Of a stretch of 12,571 nucleotides of DNA, positions 1,330-12,490 are shown piece after piece. Position numbers and translations under genes: made by a program. The notes below the pieces were generated by a model. It was not told where the DNA came from. It searched no databases and worked only from the letters and a program-made list of their open reading frames with translations. The number at the start of each line of letters is the position of its first letter. The stretch's first letter is position 1. Source of the stretch: Promethearchaeota archaeon. Its GTDB lineage: Archaea > Asgardarchaeota > Lokiarchaeia > Sigyniarchaeales > SOKP01. The stretch is taken from the NCBI GenBank assembly GCA_048938445.1, contig JBHLME010000130.1, positions 1-12,571 of the forward strand. Reading direction: 5' to 3'.

Positions 1330-2064
1330 ATGAATTCAGAAATCTATTGCATAGGTCATAGAGGATGTAGAATAGGCTCAGATGAAAATACCTTTACTGC
1401 TTTTACTAAAGCCCTAAAAAATGGTGCAGATTGCATAGAATTCGATGTTCACAAAACTAAAGATAATAAGTTAATAATAATTCATGATATAACGCTAGAA
1501 CGGACAACCAATGGATTCGGTAAAGTTAATGAATTGAATTATGAAGAAATTAAGAATTTTAAAACAAATTTAAAAGGATGTCCAATTCCCCTTCTATCCG
1601 AGGTAATTGATGCATTTAAAAATAAGATAAATTTCTTAATTGAATTAAAAGGGGAGAATATCAGAAATTTATTAATAAAATTGTTAAAACAAAAAGATAT
1701 TCTTAATAGTTGCATTTTTAGTAGCAGAAATTTAAGCGAATTATTTTTATTAAAAACTGAACTTCCAAAAAGTCAAATTTGCTATAATATTACAAAAGGG
1801 ATAGGTTTATCTTTAAAAAAAATCCAAGAACAGAAAAAAATTCCGAAACAAATCAATATCATTAGTTTGGATTCAAGATTAATCACACAAGATTTTATAA
1901 ACCTTTGCCACAATCAAAATGTTTTAGTGTATTCATGGAATTTCATTAAATACAAGAAACCGATTGAAAAAATTAAATTGCTAATAACGCTTGGGATTGA
2001 TGGAATTTTATTTGATGATTGTCAAAACATTCCTTCTATCAAAAAGTGGGTAAAATCAAATTAA
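1330..2064 (+). CDS. ugpQ: Glycerophosphodiester phosphodiesterase (GDPD, UgpQ/GlpQ family), cytoplasmic
   Basis: IGHRG (H10), ENT, IEFDVHKTKD (E37, D39), IIHDxTLxRTT (H52), IPLLSEV, IELK and GIDGILFD motifs. No signal peptide. Confidence 0.92.
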   Translation: MNSEIYCIGHRGCRIGSDENTFTAFTKALKNGADCIEFDVHKTKDNKLIIIHDITLERTTNGFGKVNELNYEEIKNFKTNLKGCPIPLLSEVIDAFKNKINFLIELKGENIRNLLIKLLKQKDILNSCIFSSRNLSELFLLKTELPKSQICYNITKGIGLSLKKIQEQKKIPKQINIISLDSRLITQDFINLCHNQNVLVYSWNFIKYKKPIEKIKLLITLGIDGILFDDCQNIPSIKKWVKSN

Positions 2065-4121
2065 ACTTTTTCAAGCTCCATTACGGAGGTCCCTGATGGG
2101 AGTTTTAAAAGGATCTCATCTAATGGTAAAAGTTTCACCCATTTTTTAAATTCTTTATTAATATTTTTAATATAATATTCTTTTATTTCTTTTGCTAATT
2201 TACCTTTTGAAATTCCTGTTTTAGAAGGTTTAATTATTAGAATATTGCTTGATACTTGACTCTTTATAGATATAATTGGTCCACATAAAATTCTAGGATA
2301 AAAAAGTTTGGTCTGATTGTCAATTGAGCCTTCTAACTCTTCTAATTCTAATGCAATTGCTAATTCTGTTTTAATATTCCTCATAAAATTCTTTTTTCCT
2401 GTAATAATAAATGATCCCTTGGGTAAAAACTCTCCAGAAGGAGGTGTTTTTGAAACTTGAGAGGAATTTACAAAAAAAACATCAACAATATTCCAAGATT
2501 CTTTCCATGCTCGAGAAAAACTGGCGACAAATATAGCTGTTTCTTCCAATGATACTTCAGAAATTTGAAGATTTTCTGTGTTTTTTATAATCATCAAAGG
2601 AGAACCAGGAAAATTTGTATGAAAAACTAAATCATTAGTTTCCATATATTTTTTAAAAATCACTTCATTAGAAGAGGCATCTTTTCCACCAATTACGAGA
2701 AATCCTTCAGAAGTAATAAACCAATGAAATTTTTCATACCATTTTTTTTTTGGTTTTTTAATTAAAACATTTATTTCCGTTTCTATAGATTCTTTCTGTT
2801 CTTTTAATTCTTTAATTTTTTTTTTTGTTTTTTCAATTGCAGGAATTGTTCCTTTTATTTTTTTTTCCGCTTTTTTTCCTTTATCATAAATAGAATTTGC
2901 ATTTTCTCCAACACTTTTATTGAGATCAATATAAACCTCACTTTCATTTATTAAAATAATTAATTGTTTCGAGGCGGGAAGGATTTTTCCAAATAATTGA
3001 GTATCCGGCAAATTTTCCAATTTTGCTGTTTTTAATTTATTATTAATATCTTCCCATGAGTATCCCTTCTCTCTAGCAGAAAGAATCACATTGATCATAT
3101 TTTCTATGGTCTTAAAATTTGCATATATATAATCTCCATATTCATAATATTTCTTCTTATCTTCTTTTAGTTCCTCTAGATATTCTAATTGATTTTTTAA
3201 GATCTTTTTATGTGTTTTAATTTTTTGGTTAATTCTTAGGTCTTTAGGTTCTTTTATAACCTTAGAGTCTATTTTTGAAAAAAATTCATCTACAGCTTCA
3301 TTAAAAGTATTACATTTTTTCATATTACTATCTTTATACATTTCTAATTCAAAAGGAATAACAAATTTTTCTTCATTTGAATCATCTAATATAATTAGGG
3401 GTTGAAATTCATCAAAAAGTACCTGATTTCTTAAATTTCTAAATATTTTAAATAAATGGTCTAATTCTTCTTCAGTGAGTTTATTTCCCGATTTTTTTTT
3501 ATTAATTTTAGCTCGATAACATAATTCTTCACCATACAATCCAGAAATATTAATATTTCTTGCTAAAATGCGAACTAACTCTGCTTCAGAACCTTTAATT
3601 ATTTCTTTAAAATCTTCTTGATTTATTGTAAGAAAATCTTTCCCTCGAGATGGTGGAAATAAAAATTCTCTTCCAGCTAATATATCCCTATCCCTAAACT
3701 TTCTATATTTTTTAGCGACTTTTAATATATTATTCTCATCTAATAGTAAATAATTGCCTTTATTAAATAGTTCAATTATTAATTTCCAAGGTTCTCCATT
3801 AATGTTACTTAATTCAACAATAATTATTCGATCAAAATTAAATTGTGATACTCCTAAAATAGTTCTATTTTTTAAAAATTTTCTTAATGACATTACAAAT
3901 TGACTTGGATATTTGGGAACAGGATAATCATATTCCGTTAAATTTATTCGAGAGTCGCTCTTAATAATTAAATTTTTGCGCCCATTTCTTTTCAAATTTA
4001 ATTTTAAAATTAATAAATCCTCAAGTTCATAAACATTTACTATGCTACTACCTTCTAGTAATTCATTCAATTCTTTCGAAATCGCATAAACATCAAAATT
4101 CGAAAAATTTACATTTGGCAT
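2061..4121 (-). CDS. rqcH: Ribosome quality-control factor Rqc2/NEMF/RqcH (NFACT-N, HhH, coiled coil, NFACT-R)
   Basis: N-terminal FD (D10), PSQFVMSLRKFL, FDRII (D97-R98), IIELFNKGNYLL, ENANSIYDKGKK, WYEKFHWFITSEGFLVIGGKDASSNE, VSKTPPSGEFLPKGSFIITGKKNF. These are hallmark archaeal/eukaryotic NEMF motifs. Confidence 0.95.
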   Translation of the reverse strand: MPNVNFSNFDVYAISKELNELLEGSSIVNVYELEDLLILKLNLKRNGRKNLIIKSDSRINLTEYDYPVPKYPSQFVMSLRKFLKNRTILGVSQFNFDRIIIVELSNINGEPWKLIIELFNKGNYLLLDENNILKVAKKYRKFRDRDILAGREFLFPPSRGKDFLTINQEDFKEIIKGSEAELVRILARNINISGLYGEELCYRAKINKKKSGNKLTEEELDHLFKIFRNLRNQVLFDEFQPLIILDDSNEEKFVIPFELEMYKDSNMKKCNTFNEAVDEFFSKIDSKVIKEPKDLRINQKIKTHKKILKNQLEYLEELKEDKKKYYEYGDYIYANFKTIENMINVILSAREKGYSWEDINNKLKTAKLENLPDTQLFGKILPASKQLIILINESEVYIDLNKSVGENANSIYDKGKKAEKKIKGTIPAIEKTKKKIKELKEQKESIETEINVLIKKPKKKWYEKFHWFITSEGFLVIGGKDASSNEVIFKKYMETNDLVFHTNFPGSPLMIIKNTENLQISEVSLEETAIFVASFSRAWKESWNIVDVFFVNSSQVSKTPPSGEFLPKGSFIITGKKNFMRNIKTELAIALELEELEGSIDNQTKLFYPRILCGPIISIKSQVSSNILIIKPSKTGISKGKLAKEIKEYYIKNINKEFKKWVKLLPLDEILLKLPSGTSVMELEKV

Positions 4122-7020: not shown

Positions 7021-7434
7021 TTACCTTCCTTCGAATATTTTCATTAAATTTTTTGCAGCTATACGCATTACTTTAACTGTTTTCATCAAAGTATCTATTC
7101 TAGTACCTGCTGAAGCGATAACTAATCGTCCTGCATTAGTGACTACAATATATCCATCATTAGCTCTTACAATAATTTCACTTAAATCTTCTTGGAATAA
7201 TGATTGGATTGTGGAGCGTCCTGTCATCGTTAATGCAGAGGCTAGTCCACAAAATGCATCAGAATCTACAGTATAATTAGGGAGCGCGCTAAACGCGATT
7301 TGATAACCATCTTGGCTTACAAGTGCAATTGCTTCAATCTCAGCATTAGATGTTATAAATGTGATTTGGGGACTAATTTTCTCTATATCCTCATTAGTAA
7401 TTCCCAAATCTGAGCCGAATTGGACTTTTATCAC
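7021..7434 (-). CDS. Roadblock/LC7 (MglB/LAMTOR-like) domain protein
   Basis: EIEAIALVSQDGYQIAFS, DAFCGLASAL and LSEIIVRANDGYIVV match the Roadblock consensus (alpha-beta-beta-alpha-beta-beta-beta-alpha). The GTG start is uncertain. Confidence 0.88.
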   Translation of the reverse strand: MIKVQFGSDLGITNEDIEKISPQITFITSNAEIEAIALVSQDGYQIAFSALPNYTVDSDAFCGLASALTMTGRSTIQSLFQEDLSEIIVRANDGYIVVTNAGRLVIASAGTRIDTLMKTVKVMRIAAKNLMKIFEGR

Positions 7435-7595: not shown

Positions 7596-9620
7596 TTAAA
7601 GAAAATCATCTAAATTTAATTGAAAACGTCTTTTTTTAAGAGTTTCAAATAGTCTTTTTCTATTTTTTTCCTCAAAATCATTAAAAAATCCTTCAAAATT
7701 GAAATCTTGCTGTAAGTTAGTTGTGTCATAAAGAATGTCAGAAAAGTGCAATTGGTCAAGAGAATCAATATCCCAGTTATAATTAAAATCTAATATATTT
7801 TGAAAATAACGTTGATAATATCCATCAAGATCTATTAAATAGGAGAAAAAAGCAGGACTTATTATTTTTATATTTTTTGGATATTTTACAACTTTCTCAT
7901 TTGGAGGTTCTTTTACCTGATTTTTCCACCAACTTGGCCATTTCATTCCAATGATGAAAAACATAATTTTCTTATGTTGGTATTTAAGAATTTTTTTAAG
8001 AATGTTTTTTTCAGTAATATCATTCGTATAATCAAACATCAATATTTCAATATCTTCTCTAAATTGAATTCCCATACTACTTGCTTTTTGGCGAATTCTA
8101 TCAATCTTAATTACTATACCATCAACTTTCATATTAGAATAAGGAAACAAACGTACTTCGGAGTAAAATTGGATTGAAATTGAATTAAAGAATGCTGTTA
8201 AAAGTTCATTGGTCTTTTTATGTACAACAATCCCAAGTCCACTAGCTTTTTGCTGTGGAAATCTTGTATTATAGATAAGTTCATCCCCATTGAACACTTC
8301 TTCCATTGCTATTTTTCTAACAGTATTAAGAGCAACACCATACTTTTTAGAAATGTCAGTGGCATTAAACTTTTTACTGTACAAAATATCATATTTAATA
8401 TCATCTCTTATCTTATCAGGGATCAAATCCCTTGTTGCTGTCCACCTTTCTTTATAATCCTCAGTACTGAAATTCTTTTTTGCTAGGTTCAATATAACAA
8501 TAAAACTAATCCCATATTTTTTAAATTCTTTATAAATCTCCTTAAGAGGGACAGGAGGATTTTGGTATAACTTAGAAAGGATCTTTTTTTTTAATGGTTT
8601 GAAATACTTTTCTTGGTCTGCAGGCCATTTTCTTCTATATTCTTGTAATGAATTATGTTTTTTAGCAATTTTTTTTACTGGACTTGATGAAATATCAAAA
8701 TCAGATGCAATTGTTTCCAAAGAGTCAGGATATTTTTCTTTGACTCGTTGAATTATAGCATTGTTAATTTCGACAGATAATTTTTTTTGGTTTGCAGGCC
8801 ATCGAGACTCATATTCTTCAGCGGTAAATTGTTCTTCAGCTATTTTTGATATAGTTCCGTTTCCAACTTTCAAGATTTTTGAAATTTTTATATGTGGTAT
8901 TATGGGATTCTTATTTAGCAGTTTTATTATTTCTTTTTTTTTAGATTCATGAATTTGTTGTCGCTTCGGAAAACATTTTTGATAGTAATAAATATTCCCA
9001 TTATATATTTCATTAAGGGCGATTTTTTTTATCTCATAAGGGTAAGTATTGGGATTTAATTCTGCTCCTAAATTGTTTAATATCGCTAAGATTTTCCTTT
9101 GGGAAAGAAGGGTATGCTGAATCAAATCCTTGGTAAATTCATAGATCTCACTTGTGGATTTGTTTATGATGTTAGGATTTAATAAATTTGGATATTTTTT
9201 TTTATTTATAGTTCTTAATGCATTCCTTACCAAGGAACTTCTCCGATTTTTTTGAGTTACTTGATTATAACGTTTTTTTCCTGTAGGATTGAATCGCTCT
9301 TTATATAAATTGGGCAGTAAGATTGGATTAATGCGTCTTATTAAATCAATACCAACGCCACATTCAGTTGCAATATCTTTTTTGAGCATTTGAGTATTTT
9401 CCTCCATATCCATAATCAAGGGAATTGCTTTGATCATACCTTCAATGCGAATCCTCGTGTTAGGAGTCCATTTTGAGGGAGGAGTTTTTGTAAATCCTTG
9501 TACCTCCACGTCAGCAATAATTTCATTAAGTTTTTCTTTTGACCATTTTTTTATAGATGAGGAATAATATGTATTTTTCACATAGTTTAAGATATTATCG
9601 CGGGCGACTATGGATACCAT
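7596..9620 (-). CDS. Multi-HTH repeat protein fused to a putative PD-(D/E)xK-like nuclease domain, with C-terminal PIP box
   Basis: ATG preceded by a GAGAGGA RBS. Motifs YKERF(106), YQKCFP(213), YESRWP(270), YRRKWP(328), YKERWT(389), YNTRFP(450) each follow an HTH-like segment. C-terminal G-x-x-x-H(467)...E488...VD500G...FD530YT. Ends in QLNLDDFL. The ORF is solid; the function is inferred. Confidence 0.65.
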   Translation of the reverse strand: MVSIVARDNILNYVKNTYYSSSIKKWSKEKLNEIIADVEVQGFTKTPPSKWTPNTRIRIEGMIKAIPLIMDMEENTQMLKKDIATECGVGIDLIRRINPILLPNLYKERFNPTGKKRYNQVTQKNRRSSLVRNALRTINKKKYPNLLNPNIINKSTSEIYEFTKDLIQHTLLSQRKILAILNNLGAELNPNTYPYEIKKIALNEIYNGNIYYYQKCFPKRQQIHESKKKEIIKLLNKNPIIPHIKISKILKVGNGTISKIAEEQFTAEEYESRWPANQKKLSVEINNAIIQRVKEKYPDSLETIASDFDISSSPVKKIAKKHNSLQEYRRKWPADQEKYFKPLKKKILSKLYQNPPVPLKEIYKEFKKYGISFIVILNLAKKNFSTEDYKERWTATRDLIPDKIRDDIKYDILYSKKFNATDISKKYGVALNTVRKIAMEEVFNGDELIYNTRFPQQKASGLGIVVHKKTNELLTAFFNSISIQFYSEVRLFPYSNMKVDGIVIKIDRIRQKASSMGIQFREDIEILMFDYTNDITEKNILKKILKYQHKKIMFFIIGMKWPSWWKNQVKEPPNEKVVKYPKNIKIISPAFFSYLIDLDGYYQRYFQNILDFNYNWDIDSLDQLHFSDILYDTTNLQQDFNFEGFFNDFEEKNRKRLFETLKKRRFQLNLDDFL
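8256..9149 (-). repeat. Intragenic tandem array of five ~57-61-codon HTH modules (a sixth, detached copy lies at about 9288-9440)
   Basis: Terminal motif spacing is 57, 58, 61 and 61 aa. DNA-level trace: TTGGT(C/T)TGCAGGCCAT at 8613-8628 and 8787-8802, 15/16 identical and 174 bp (58 codons) apart. Confidence 0.8.
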
Positions 9621-9997: not shown

Positions 9998-10195
9998 TTA
10001 CTTTTCAAAAGATATCTTTTGAAAAAGATTTTTCTTTTCCTCGATAGAAAGTATATCTTGATCCTCTAATTCTACGAGATCTTTTTTACTAAATTCCAAT
10101 CTGCACTTAGGACAATCAAAGGATTCATCATACTCGATTAAACCTTCAGTATTTTTACATCGAGGACAATACAAAATGTTAATATTTGTACTCAT
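9998..10195 (-). CDS. Small C4 zinc-ribbon protein
   Basis: CPRC-x14-CPKC followed by an acidic helical tail. ATG start; lies alone in otherwise non-coding DNA. Confidence 0.8.
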   Translation of the reverse strand: MSTNINILYCPRCKNTEGLIEYDESFDCPKCRLEFSKKDLVELEDQDILSIEEKKNLFQKISFEK

Positions 10196-10323: not shown

Positions 10324-10602
10324 TTAATAGATCCTATATTTATAACAGTCTGCTTCATAAATTTTCCCTTCAATAATTAAATCCGAAATAATTTGTTCTA
10401 GAGTCTCAACATCAATTCCTGTCATTTTTCCTAATGTAAAAATAGTCGTCCCATCCTCTTCTGTTTGATATCCTTCTGAAAGATATCTGAGTAAATGAAA
10501 AATTATTTCTTTAACTAATTCAAAAAAATAATTCTTGAAATAGTACCTTAATTTCACTAACTGTATTTTTGTTTTTTTAAATAATATAGGGATACTAATC
10601 AC
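10324..10602 (-). CDS. Stand-alone winged-helix protein (resembles the C-terminal wH of MCM or RPA32)
   Basis: EIIFHLLRYL...GTTIFTLGKMTGIDVETLEQIISDLIIEGKIYEADCYKYRIY gives three helices plus a terminal beta-wing with the G-x-IYE-x4-Y-R-I pattern seen at archaeal MCM C-termini. Start uncertain (GTG lies inside GAGGTGAT). Confidence 0.6.
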   Translation of the reverse strand: MISIPILFKKTKIQLVKLRYYFKNYFFELVKEIIFHLLRYLSEGYQTEEDGTTIFTLGKMTGIDVETLEQIISDLIIEGKIYEADCYKYRIY

Positions 10603-10839: not shown

Positions 10840-11784
10840 ATGTTTAAAATAGATCTTTTTAAAAGAACTATAAAAAATTGCCCTGAATGTAAAGAATTTG
10901 AATGGATTTTCGATAAAAACCGAGGAGAAATTTCATGTAAAGCGTGTGGATTTGTGAGGAATGAAAAATGTATAGATTTGGGGGAAGAATGGCGTGCCTT
11001 TTCAAGTGAAGAAGCTATTAGACGAATTCGGACAGGTGCACCATCTACATTAAAAATTTGCGATAAAGGTTTAAGTACGGTGATTAGCTGGCAAAATATT
11101 GATGCATATGGAAATTATCTCAGTCCTAATATGGTTGATCAAGTAAGAAGATTGCGTATATGGCAAAATAGATGTAGAAAATTAGGCGGAATTGAAAAAA
11201 CAATGGCAAAAATATTACCTTTATTGAGTAATTTTATATCTCAGTTGAAATTATCAAATAATAAGATATATGAATCAGTGGCATATTATCTCAGAAAAAT
11301 TAGAGAAAAAGATATGATAAAAGGAAATCCATATGAAATTATTGTTCTAGCTACAATATATTTTAGCTGCAGACAATTTAATATCCCATTATCCTTTAAG
11401 GATATTATCGAAACTTTTGATGTGAATAAAAGAGAATTATACCAATTTTACATTAAAATTAGGAAAGAATTTCCTTTAAAATTAGGAGCTTTAAAACCTT
11501 TAGATCTTATTGCGAAATATTGTAATATGCTAAATATTTCTGAAAATTGTCAACAATTGGCATGTAAAATAGTTAATATCGCCGAACAAAAAAGGATTAC
11601 TCAAGGAAAATCTCCTGCGGGTATTGCTGCGGGAGCGATTTATTTGGCTGCCTATTTAAAATCAGAACAGATTACGCAATATAGTTTATCTAAAGTAGCT
11701 AGGGTTACTGAAACTACTTTAAGGAAACATTATAAAAATTTTAGGACACATATTGATTTACACGAACATATTCTCCCTATTTAA
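10840..11784 (+). CDS. tfb: Transcription initiation factor IIB (TFB), divergent paralogue
   Basis: Zn ribbon CPEC...GEISCKACG, B-reader GEEWRAFS...RTGAP, DKGLST, B-linker RLRIWQ, two cyclin repeats, GKSPAGIAAGAIYLA, and C-terminal HTH TQ...VTETTLRKHYK. Confidence 0.95.
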   Translation: MFKIDLFKRTIKNCPECKEFEWIFDKNRGEISCKACGFVRNEKCIDLGEEWRAFSSEEAIRRIRTGAPSTLKICDKGLSTVISWQNIDAYGNYLSPNMVDQVRRLRIWQNRCRKLGGIEKTMAKILPLLSNFISQLKLSNNKIYESVAYYLRKIREKDMIKGNPYEIIVLATIYFSCRQFNIPLSFKDIIETFDVNKRELYQFYIKIRKEFPLKLGALKPLDLIAKYCNMLNISENCQQLACKIVNIAEQKRITQGKSPAGIAAGAIYLAAYLKSEQITQYSLSKVARVTETTLRKHYKNFRTHIDLHEHILPI

Positions 11785-12490
11785 AGTAAGCATAACAATT
11801 ATCATGAATTTTATTTGTTATAGTTCTAACAATATCGTGAACAAGTTCCCGAGGTATTCTTTCTAGGGATTCCTTTAGTTCCTCTTCTACTATTTTCTCA
11901 GTTTGATCTGCAAATTCTTCAAATGATAAATTTATTGCGTAATTATTCGTCCCTATTCTACCTTTGGCCTTGTTTTTTGTCTGATCTTCTTTCAAATAGG
12001 TTCTTATAAGCAGGTCTAATTTATTTATTAAATTAATTTTTAAGTAATCTTTAAAACCATTGACCAAGGTATCTATTAATACCGAATTTATTTTAACATT
12101 TTTTCTTCTATTGTTATATAATATTTCAGTGTTTGTCTTATTGAACTTGCTAATCTCTTTTCTATGTAGAAAATTTTCGAAGTAATTTAACAATGGAGTA
12201 GATTTAAATACATTTTTAAGTTCATTCATTGCAATTTCTCGACCTTTAATTGTTATGAAGTTAATCTGAGGTCTAAAACCTACTCTCGAGATTAAATTCT
12301 TACTCTTTAAAGTTGTTAAAATTATGGATACTTGACTCTTATTTCGCTCTAACCAAGATTGAATCTCTTTAAATTTCGCACCATTTTTTCGAAAATTTAA
12401 AAAAATTAATACTTTTAATTGGATAAGTGAAAGAGAAATATTTTCACTTTCATTATCATAAACACTTACTAATCTATTCATCTCATCCAT
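11777..12490 (-). CDS. MarR-like winged-helix DNA-binding protein with an uncharacterised helical C-terminal domain
   Basis: LSLIQLKVLIFL...AKFKEIQSWLERNKSQVSIILTTLKSKNLISR...FITIKG fits the MarR-type wHTH pattern. The C-terminal ~140 aa are unrecognised. Overlaps the tfb 3' end by 8 bp. Confidence 0.75.
   Translation of the reverse strand: MDEMNRLVSVYDNESENISLSLIQLKVLIFLNFRKNGAKFKEIQSWLERNKSQVSIILTTLKSKNLISRVGFRPQINFITIKGREIAMNELKNVFKSTPLLNYFENFLHRKEISKFNKTNTEILYNNRRKNVKINSVLIDTLVNGFKDYLKINLINKLDLLIRTYLKEDQTKNKAKGRIGTNNYAINLSFEEFADQTEKIVEEELKESLERIPRELVHDIVRTITNKIHDNCYAYFK

Follow-up and report, generated by a model that had tools for sequence, protein, structure and literature searches.

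Modular readers of nucleic acids, such as zinc fingers, transcription activator-like effectors (TALEs), pentatricopeptide repeat (PPR) proteins and Pumilio, are rare, and each has been turned into a tool. The nuclease FokI is described in PMC2685105 as consisting of three helix-turn-helix (HTH) subdomains, a linker and a 196-residue catalytic domain. Modification-dependent (Type IV) winged-helix fusion endonucleases are presented in PMC11037411 as stand-alone fusions of DNA-binding and nuclease domains without a methyltransferase, and the account of Cbp1 in PMC3597662 gives three imperfect repeats that bind CRISPR repeats. Here, we analyzed contig JBHLME010000130.1 of the Promethearchaeota assembly GCA_048938445.1, a stretch of 12,571 nucleotides (the window), and in it the gene of the protein P0001. 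An original prediction for positions 8256-9440, which correspond to P0001 residues 61-455, had described six HTH modules with a common scaffold and hypervariable recognition helices and had proposed a possible modular DNA-reading code. The observation proved to be real; it was overstated for P0001, and its interpretation was supported in part at the family level. What the prediction had missed was that the array is fused to a nuclease-like domain. Our reading, which we hold with slightly better than even confidence, is that P0001 is a DNA-targeting endonuclease of an undescribed Promethearchaeota (Asgard) family, in which an HTH array whose modules read subsites is fused to a catalytically intact PD-(D/E)xK-type domain. 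Four computed results carry this reading: the fold of the modules, the fold of the C-terminal domain, the association of the array with an intact motif, and the evolutionary pattern of helix 3.

The family was collected by an exhaustive protein search, which yielded 107 clusters at E <= 0.001, 71 of them at <= 1e-10; a word-indexed protein search had returned one relative only, and the exhaustive search was used instead. P0001 alone as a query against the genome contigs retrieved no relative. The most conserved part of the family was the region of residues 460-647 (the C-domain). The AlphaFold2 (AF2) model of this domain had a predicted local distance difference test score (pLDDT) of 87 and a predicted template modelling score (pTM) of 0.83. 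It displayed an alpha-beta-beta-beta-alpha-beta core, formed by a helix at 456-480, strands at 486-489, 499-503 and 526-532, a helix at 537-547 and a strand at 552-558. Almost all of the best 50 matches in two structure comparisons were PD-(D/E)xK nucleases (Z 4.4-6.7), and the neighbors included the HerA-associated nuclease (Z 6.7), Can1 (6.3), McrC (6.2-6.3), Can2, the R2 endonuclease domain, BglII and Bax1. In the ESM Atlas, the structural neighbors were Mrr_cat and CoiA_nuc clusters. The domain had no match in BFVD at E <= 0.001 (Foldseek) and no Pfam, NCBIfam or PADLOC model, the NCBIfam and PADLOC scans giving only generic HTH matches; a profile of the domain found nothing meaningful among the PDB sequences (best E 0.13). 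The C-domain appears to be a new divergent branch of the PD-(D/E)xK fold. Among 85 full domains, the acidic residues were conserved at E488 (61), D500 (69) and D530 (55, plus 8 with Glu), and K543 and K546 on the next helix were conserved as well. The motif H..E..D..(D/E)xT..K..KYQ was intact in 52 of the 54 members that bear HTH modules and lost in 2, while among 37 members without HTH modules it was intact in 11 and lost in 26, the latter being mostly proteins with a membrane segment.

The modules, each about 55 aa long, were detected with a profile that was seeded with the six modules of P0001 and iterated over the family. It recovered 216 modules in 58 of the 107 family proteins (1-11 per protein), with no hit in shuffled and none in reversed copies. 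All six predicted ten-residue strings stood at their predicted residues in the 674-aa product, with anchor spacings of 103, 60, 58, 61 and 58 residues, and the profile found no seventh module at residues 1-63 or 115-155 of P0001. The predicted [IV]-x-[KRN]-[IL] scaffold and Y..RWP-type downstream cap recurred throughout the family: V/I at column 35 (88%), K/R/N at column 37 (74%) and I/L/V at column 38 (80%), followed by Y48 (67%), R51 (49%), F/W52 (98%) and P53 (88%). The full consensus read I24, A25, V30, S31, T34, V/I35, K/R/N37, I38 and A39, then Y48, R51, F/W52 and P53.

Structural analysis agreed with the HTH assignment. The AF2 model of modules 3-6 (residues 223-457; pLDDT 88.9) showed four helices per module, at profile columns 3-15, 21-28 and 32-42 and, for the short helix 4 that bears the Y..R[FW]P cap, at columns 45-51; a G-V-S turn occupied columns 29-31. 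In each modelled module, three helices formed a core, and the turn that joins helix 2 to the recognition helix 3 was tight. In an exhaustive structural comparison, single modules aligned with solved HTH DNA-binding domains over 42-55 residues (Z 5.1-6.2, root-mean-square deviation (rmsd) 1.6-3.7), for example with the DNA-binding domain of GcrA (Z 6.1, rmsd 2.6, 48 residues) and the HTH of a serine recombinase (Z 5.5, rmsd 1.7, 43 residues), and further with Lrp/AsnC, homeodomains, Myb repeats and the Tc3 bipartite domain. The best matches to several modules at once were Tc3 (Z 5.8), SNAPc (5.6 over 146 residues), DUX4 and R2R3 Myb. The highest-probability Foldseek matches of the module model were the DUX4 double homeodomain, the Tc3 bipartite domain and the Pax6 paired domain. 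In addition, Pfam scans of 24 relatives, in which the scores are whole-protein sums over repeats, gave Sigma70_r4 in 14, HTH_23 in 14 and HTH_Tnp_ISL3 in 9, with a best E of 2.6e-31. These results supported the assignment of the modules to the HTH type.

The identity among the P0001 modules was 8-35% in protein and 39-51% in DNA; within this protein, the modules are old. The original prediction had taken a match of 15 of 16 nt, 174 nt apart, as evidence for an origin by internal duplication. The match exists, and the peptide on which it falls, RWPA[DN]Q, is the best conserved one. If the residues are identical, the codon usage of the gene would by itself yield the same P/A/Q codons about 1 time in 10, the DNA identity of the modules is otherwise low, and the same 5.6 kb holds 17 two-copy repeats of similar size; the match therefore marks the shared motif and not a recent duplication. 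The homology of the modules itself implies an ancient internal duplication. In the family, arrays range from 1 to 11 modules, and some contain identical neighboring modules, which shows that duplication enlarges arrays. At one locus of a relative (L019, G043 contig C2), the modules at residues 559-609 and 615-665 of the open frame were identical in protein and differed by three synonymous changes; this pair is a recent in-array duplication under purifying selection.

The hypervariability of the recognition helix was assessed first in P0001 and then in its relatives. Within P0001, the mean per-column pairwise difference was 0.79, seven columns differed in every module pair and were spread also over helix 1 and the loop, and the variability of helix-3 sets defined a priori was 1.08-1.17 times that of the remaining columns (permutation p 0.18-0.44). 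Because the modules are old and the variation extends over the whole module, the claim is not demonstrable in P0001 itself. It did hold in the young arrays of eight relatives (median within-array identity 0.50-0.79), where variability was concentrated in helix 3. The most variable columns were 32, 22, 33, 36 and 37; columns 32, 33, 36 and 37 are residues 1, 2, 5 and 6 of helix 3, column 22 lies in helix 2, and column 32, the first residue of helix 3, ranked top in six of the eight arrays. The a-priori sets varied 1.9-2.2 times as much as the rest (permutation p 0.005-0.0001), with 1.9 (p 0.005) for columns 32-34, the set of the original prediction, and 2.2 (p 0.0002) for helix 3 positions 1, 2 and 6.

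Codon-level analysis gave the same picture. Over all pairs within arrays, the proportion of synonymous differences (pS) was near saturation (0.44-0.79), so only the 10 closest non-overlapping module pairs were used, drawn from five arrays with DNA, all of one genus. By Nei-Gojobori counts, which are rough in a 27% G+C genome, the ratio of nonsynonymous to synonymous change (omega) was 0.99-1.12 at the variable helix columns and 0.27-0.29 elsewhere, and the excess of nonsynonymous change at the variable columns was significant (Fisher p about 1e-8). The composition of these columns was also distinct, with 17% Arg vs 4.9% at other exposed columns and 4% Glu vs 16.8%. Among five syntenic orthologues with six collinear modules each, the recognition columns were 57-58% identical and evolved with an omega of 0.35 (0.27-0.28 for the rest), whereas between modules of one protein they were only 7-9% identical, vs 26-27% for the rest. 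Fast change after duplication followed by retention between orthologues is the pattern of specificity positions. Collectively, variability, omega, the Arg/Glu bias and orthologue conservation supported the view that the N-terminal residues of helix 3 carry module-specific information at the family level, and the recognition columns appear to behave as specificity-determining positions rather than as free surface.

Several points weigh against our reading. The structural Z-scores of 5-6.7 are modest, and Foldseek against the PDB returned no match at E <= 0.001 for the module model and none for the C-domain model (best E 0.0095). P0001 itself fell below the Pfam cut-offs, its best score being 20.9 bits for HTH_24 with residues 223-457 and 13.2 with the whole protein, vs a cut-off of 21.9. 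The model of modules 3-6 had a pTM of 0.42, and hence it does not define the relative placement of the modules. The canonical Lys of (D/E)xK is Thr532 in P0001, and Thr occupies this position in 73 of the 85 full domains; a catalytic Lys, if there is one, must therefore come from the next helix, and K543 or K546 is assumed to serve as such. At the recognition columns, omega was about 1 and not significantly above it (Fisher p 0.34-0.56), so diversifying selection is not established. As to sampling, columns 22 and 36 were added post hoc with the data already seen, the young arrays represent about six subfamilies, the arrays with DNA come from one genus, and the five orthologues are kin.

On our reading of P0001 as a DNA-targeting endonuclease, helix 3 of each module would lie in the major groove, where its residues 1, 2, 5 and 6 would set the subsite preference of that module; column 22 of helix 2 probably also faces DNA. 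The array would read a long composite site and bring the nuclease domain to it, much as the three HTH subdomains of FokI do, and the PD-(D/E)xK domain would cut or nick nearby. New specificities would arise by module duplication, fast change at a few positions and then selective retention. The biological role may be that of a selfish homing-type cutter, modification-independent defense or a host DNA transaction. A bolder extension, which we consider rather unlikely, would make these proteins natural array nucleases analogous to designed zinc-finger nucleases (ZFNs) and TALE nucleases (TALENs): the modules would read short subsites roughly additively, array length (1-11) would set target length, and Asgard lineages would gain new cutting specificities through duplication of modules and the rewriting of four or five helix residues.

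Table 1. Features of the P0001 gene in the window (aa, amino acids; i-E, independent E-value; ORF, open reading frame)
Feature	Position	Strand	Details
Whole gene P0001	7596..9620	-	674 aa; N-terminal region, six HTH modules, C-terminal nuclease-like domain; stop codon 7596-7598; from ORF list and translation
N-terminal region	9432..9620	-	aa 1-63; module profile scores all below 0 bits; no Pfam match, no significant family match
HTH module 1	9279..9431	-	aa 64-114; weakest, N-terminally truncated; GVGIDLIRRI (88-97); 22 bits, i-E 9e-7
Spacer	9156..9278	-	aa 115-155; basic; no module match; anchor spacing 103 aa vs ~58
HTH module 2	8961..9155	-	aa 156-220; insertion before helix 3; NTYPYEIKKI (191-200); 23 bits
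HTH module 3	8790..8954	-	aa 223-277; KVGNGTISKI (251-260); cap YESRWPANQ; 45-48 bits; AF2 helices aa 225-237, 243-250, 254-264, 267-273
HTH module 4	8616..8780	-	aa 281-335; DISSSPVKKI (309-318); cap YRRKWPADQ; 45-49 bits; AF2 model
HTH module 5	8433..8600	-	aa 341-396; GISFIVILNL (370-379); cap YKERWT; 34 bits; AF2 model
HTH module 6	8250..8423	-	aa 400-457; GVALNTVRKI (428-437); cap YNTRFP; 50 bits; AF2 model; abuts nuclease-like domain
C-terminal PD-(D/E)xK-like domain	7680..8243	-	aa 460-647; H467, E488, D500, D530-x-T532, K543, K546-Y547-Q548, W561, N583
C-terminal tail	7599..7679	-	aa 648-674; low confidence, pLDDT below 60 in last ~25 residues
Copy 1 of 15/16-nt match	8613..8628	-	encodes (K)WPADQ of module 4 cap
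Copy 2 of 15/16-nt match	8787..8802	-	encodes (R)WPANQ of module 3 cap

The gene sequence was reproducible, since short contigs from the runs of another study (e.g., 7733-7883, 7974-8337, 8460-8676 and 9228-9555) matched it with 0 differences. These contigs, from four runs, were identical to the P0001 gene and showed no population variation; no RNA data set was among the runs listed for the sequence. The G+C content across the window was 25-36%. Besides P0001, the window encodes the transcription factor TFB, a Roadblock/LC7 protein, an NFACT homologue and a TrpB-like enzyme, the last with 73-92% identity to proteins in Promethearchaeota (Asgard) assemblies. The NFACT homologue (RqcH-type ribosome quality control; 2061-4121, minus strand) and Roadblock/LC7 (7021-7434, minus strand) are ordinary genes of kinds typical for Asgard archaea and are unrelated to the array.

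The C-domain was also seen in other architectures. Twenty family members, most of them long and with HTH modules few or absent, were scanned with Pfam, which gave Laminin_G_3 in 5, Big_13 in 2, an extra RNase_T in 2 and no match in 12; four of the five Laminin_G_3 members also carry DUF2341. In relatives, the inactivated C-domain ends very large surface proteins of up to 3037 aa. In the one inactivated paralogue of this genome (L002, G000 contig C253, 3-1496, plus strand), the C-domain terminates a membrane protein that has an Ig-like ectodomain, and the acidic nuclease residues are replaced. In P0083 and P0053, an RNase_T domain (DEDD exonuclease) follows the PD-(D/E)xK-like domain, giving an HTH, endonuclease-like and exonuclease fusion. 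In P0079 and P0094, neither of which has HTH modules, the inactivated domain is followed by a Cys/His-rich end (C..C ... C.HH) that may be a zinc ribbon.

The distribution of the family bears on a rival explanation that we regard as possible, if rather unlikely, namely that P0001 is a selfish free-standing homing-type endonuclease gene or a mobile-element remnant whose array gives a long, rare target and which spreads by cutting empty sites. The patchy occurrence speaks for it. Of 41 related genomes, 11 carried the C-domain, and these belonged to a single taxonomic family (10 of 24 genomes in that family, 0 of 16 in three sister families); the number of matches in a genome was 0-9, and some copies had in-frame stops. 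With another query, 45 of the 135 genomes in the taxonomic family proved to contain relatives. For one group of orthologues, which adjoins a GH57 gene, 6 of the 54 genomes in the genus had a copy, and one of these copies bears a TGA stop. The surroundings of the gene point the same way. Five same-genus genomes have TrpB and Roadblock at 83-97% identity, yet beyond Roadblock they carry other genes, and the side of the P0001 gene that faces away from Roadblock is not shared with them. The TFB encoded in the window reaches only about 40% identity with the TFBs of four same-genus genomes, each of which has two copies. These results indicated that the P0001 gene lies at the edge of a strain-specific stretch, the extent of which is hidden by the contig end at 12571. 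The genes next to Roadblock in two same-genus genomes were found here on another contig with only 45% identity.

Other results stand against a homing-type origin. The window held no intron, intein, terminal repeats, integrase or tRNA beside the gene; scans for tRNAs and repeats around it gave no integration signature; and comparison of the 12.6-kb contig with the same-genus genomes by synteny defined no insertion border, any island's borders being unseen on a contig of this length. A search of the IMG/VR viral contigs, with one search pattern, found no relatives. The neighbors of family genes were housekeeping genes (28 related loci, flanks of about 1.5 kb), and the five syntenic orthologues are under purifying selection (omega about 0.28).

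The neighborhoods themselves were further inspected. At three loci of one genus (L032, L033 and L034, genus g11), the family gene adjoins a gene for a Ras/Roc/Arf-type small GTPase of about 480 aa, and other family loci have a GH57 or a VWA_CoxE neighbor in common. The recurrence of the GTPase, GH57 and VWA_CoxE neighbors indicates several distinct orthologue groups at fixed chromosomal places. In the window, TFB (10840-11784, plus strand) is grouped with 9998-10195, 10324-10602 and 11777-12490 (all minus strand), which comprise a small Zn-ribbon ORF, a PCI/winged-helix ORF and a winged-helix protein of 237 aa. This group looks like a strain-specific accessory transcription-factor cluster and is possibly part of an integrated element. 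The genome bin (G000) has 4.6 Mb and an estimated contamination of 8.2%, and the five same-genus relatives have 2.5-4.0 Mb. Its copy of a 770-aa gene that flanks Roadblock in the relatives is 45% identical and lies on another contig. Some contigs of the bin may come from a second strain or species.

The inactivated C-domains bring up the explanation that P0001 is a non-cutting DNA-binding regulator or chromatin-type protein, in which the array binds repeated or long sites in the manner of Cbp1 and the C-domain oligomerizes or senses. As the 26 members with lost acidic residues cannot be nucleases, the C-domain does have a non-catalytic use; Cbp1, with its three imperfect repeats (PMC3597662), offers an archaeal precedent for a multi-HTH binder, and the five orthologues at a conserved position under purifying selection would also suit such a role. 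We nevertheless judge it unlikely, because 52 of the 54 members with HTH modules retain the residues H, E, D, D/E, K, K, Y and Q, which decay where the HTH modules are absent, and this retention together with the array is hard to explain without catalysis.

A further possibility is that the helical modules form a solenoid-like scaffold for protein or RNA binding and that their variable positions are unconstrained surface. An omega of about 1 at these positions after duplication would be expected from such a surface, the packing between modules is not settled by the model, and the fold matches are of modest Z. We consider this explanation very unlikely, since Arg is enriched 3.5-fold and Glu depleted 4-fold relative to other exposed columns, the variable positions are conserved between orthologues (omega 0.35), and the arrays co-occur with an intact nuclease motif. 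In classical HTH helices, moreover, the base-contacting positions coincide with the variable helix-3 columns of the family.

A true repeat code of the TALE or PPR type, in which each module reads fixed bases, residues map one-to-one to bases and targets are readable from sequence, is scarcely credible: young-array scaffolds are indeed 55-79% identical with differences at the first two residues of helix 3, and P0004 has 8 different column 32 residues in 11 modules, but columns 32-33 hold 126 distinct residue pairs in the 216 modules vs 129.5 +/- 3.7 by random pairing, the four-residue signatures number 201, only 10 of them common to two or more proteins, with no small recurrent TALE-like residue alphabet among the 216 modules, the P0001 modules are only 8-35% identical, and HTH helices generally contact several bases in a context-dependent manner. 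Modular reading is plausible, and the code that had been proposed is not supported.

The family is of interest for several reasons. It bears the evolutionary signature of a modular reader on the commonest DNA-binding fold, and its array comes fused to a nuclease-type domain. Should the modules read DNA additively, the family would offer a natural test system for building long target sites from HTH units and would be a candidate undescribed class of site-specific nucleases in Promethearchaeota. If they do not, it would still be an unannotated, lineage-restricted family with a new divergent PD-(D/E)xK branch, a branch that in inactivated form also serves large surface proteins as their cytoplasmic tail. 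Full-text literature searches found no publication on this family.

In comparison with known systems, P0001 resembles FokI-type (Type IIS) enzymes in having several putative recognition units of the HTH type at the N-terminus and a separate PD-(D/E)xK-type domain, predicted to cleave, at the C-terminus. It differs from FokI in four respects. First, no DNA methyltransferase was found among the window ORFs or among 33 neighbor ORFs at 28 related loci (of 48 such ORFs, 33 were used, and the 15 that were shorter or overlapping were set aside); in this respect P0001 departs from a restriction-modification system. Second, the modules of the P0001 family are 1-11 homologous tandem repeats, whereas FokI has three unlike subdomains. 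Third, there is no sequence similarity. Fourth, the putative catalytic Lys of P0001 lies outside the canonical position. FokI was absent from the best 50 matches of either structure comparison, which does not exclude similarity. The winged-helix fusion endonucleases share the fusion of a DNA-binding domain with a nuclease and the lack of a methyltransferase; in these enzymes, methylated bases are sensed by one or two winged helices, whereas P0001 has a long array of wingless four-helix modules. Homing endonucleases with HTH/NUMOD units (I-TevI and its kin) likewise tether a nuclease to small DNA-binding units and have a patchy, multi-copy distribution, but the P0001 family has a PD-(D/E)xK domain instead of GIY-YIG or HNH and no intron or intein context.

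The tandem HTH readers, including Myb R2R3, SNAPc Myb, Paired/Tc3, DUX4 and Cbp1/Cbp2, also use consecutive tri-helical HTH units of about 50 aa to read a composite site. They have 2-5 units and no nuclease domain, in contrast to the P0001 family with its fourth helix bearing the Y..R[FW]P cap, its up to 11 units and its fused PD-(D/E)xK domain, and the structural matches to them are of modest Z without a significant sequence relation. By sequence, P0001 belongs to none of the compared systems. Like C2H2 zinc fingers and TALEs, the family has a tandem array in which the scaffold is conserved, while a few positions, predicted to face the nucleic acid, change fast and are retained between orthologues; it differs in its HTH fold, in having no small residue alphabet and in the high divergence of the P0001 repeats. 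Near-identical repeats that differ at few positions are absent from P0001 and present in the eight young-array relatives (ratio 1.9-2.2). ZFN and TALEN designs have an array-plus-nuclease layout that the P0001 family mirrors, and zinc-finger arrays are the closest analogue for its evolutionary mode. HTH readers fused to PD-(D/E)xK nucleases are a known kind of protein; the feature of interest here is the zinc-finger-like diversification of the HTH modules.

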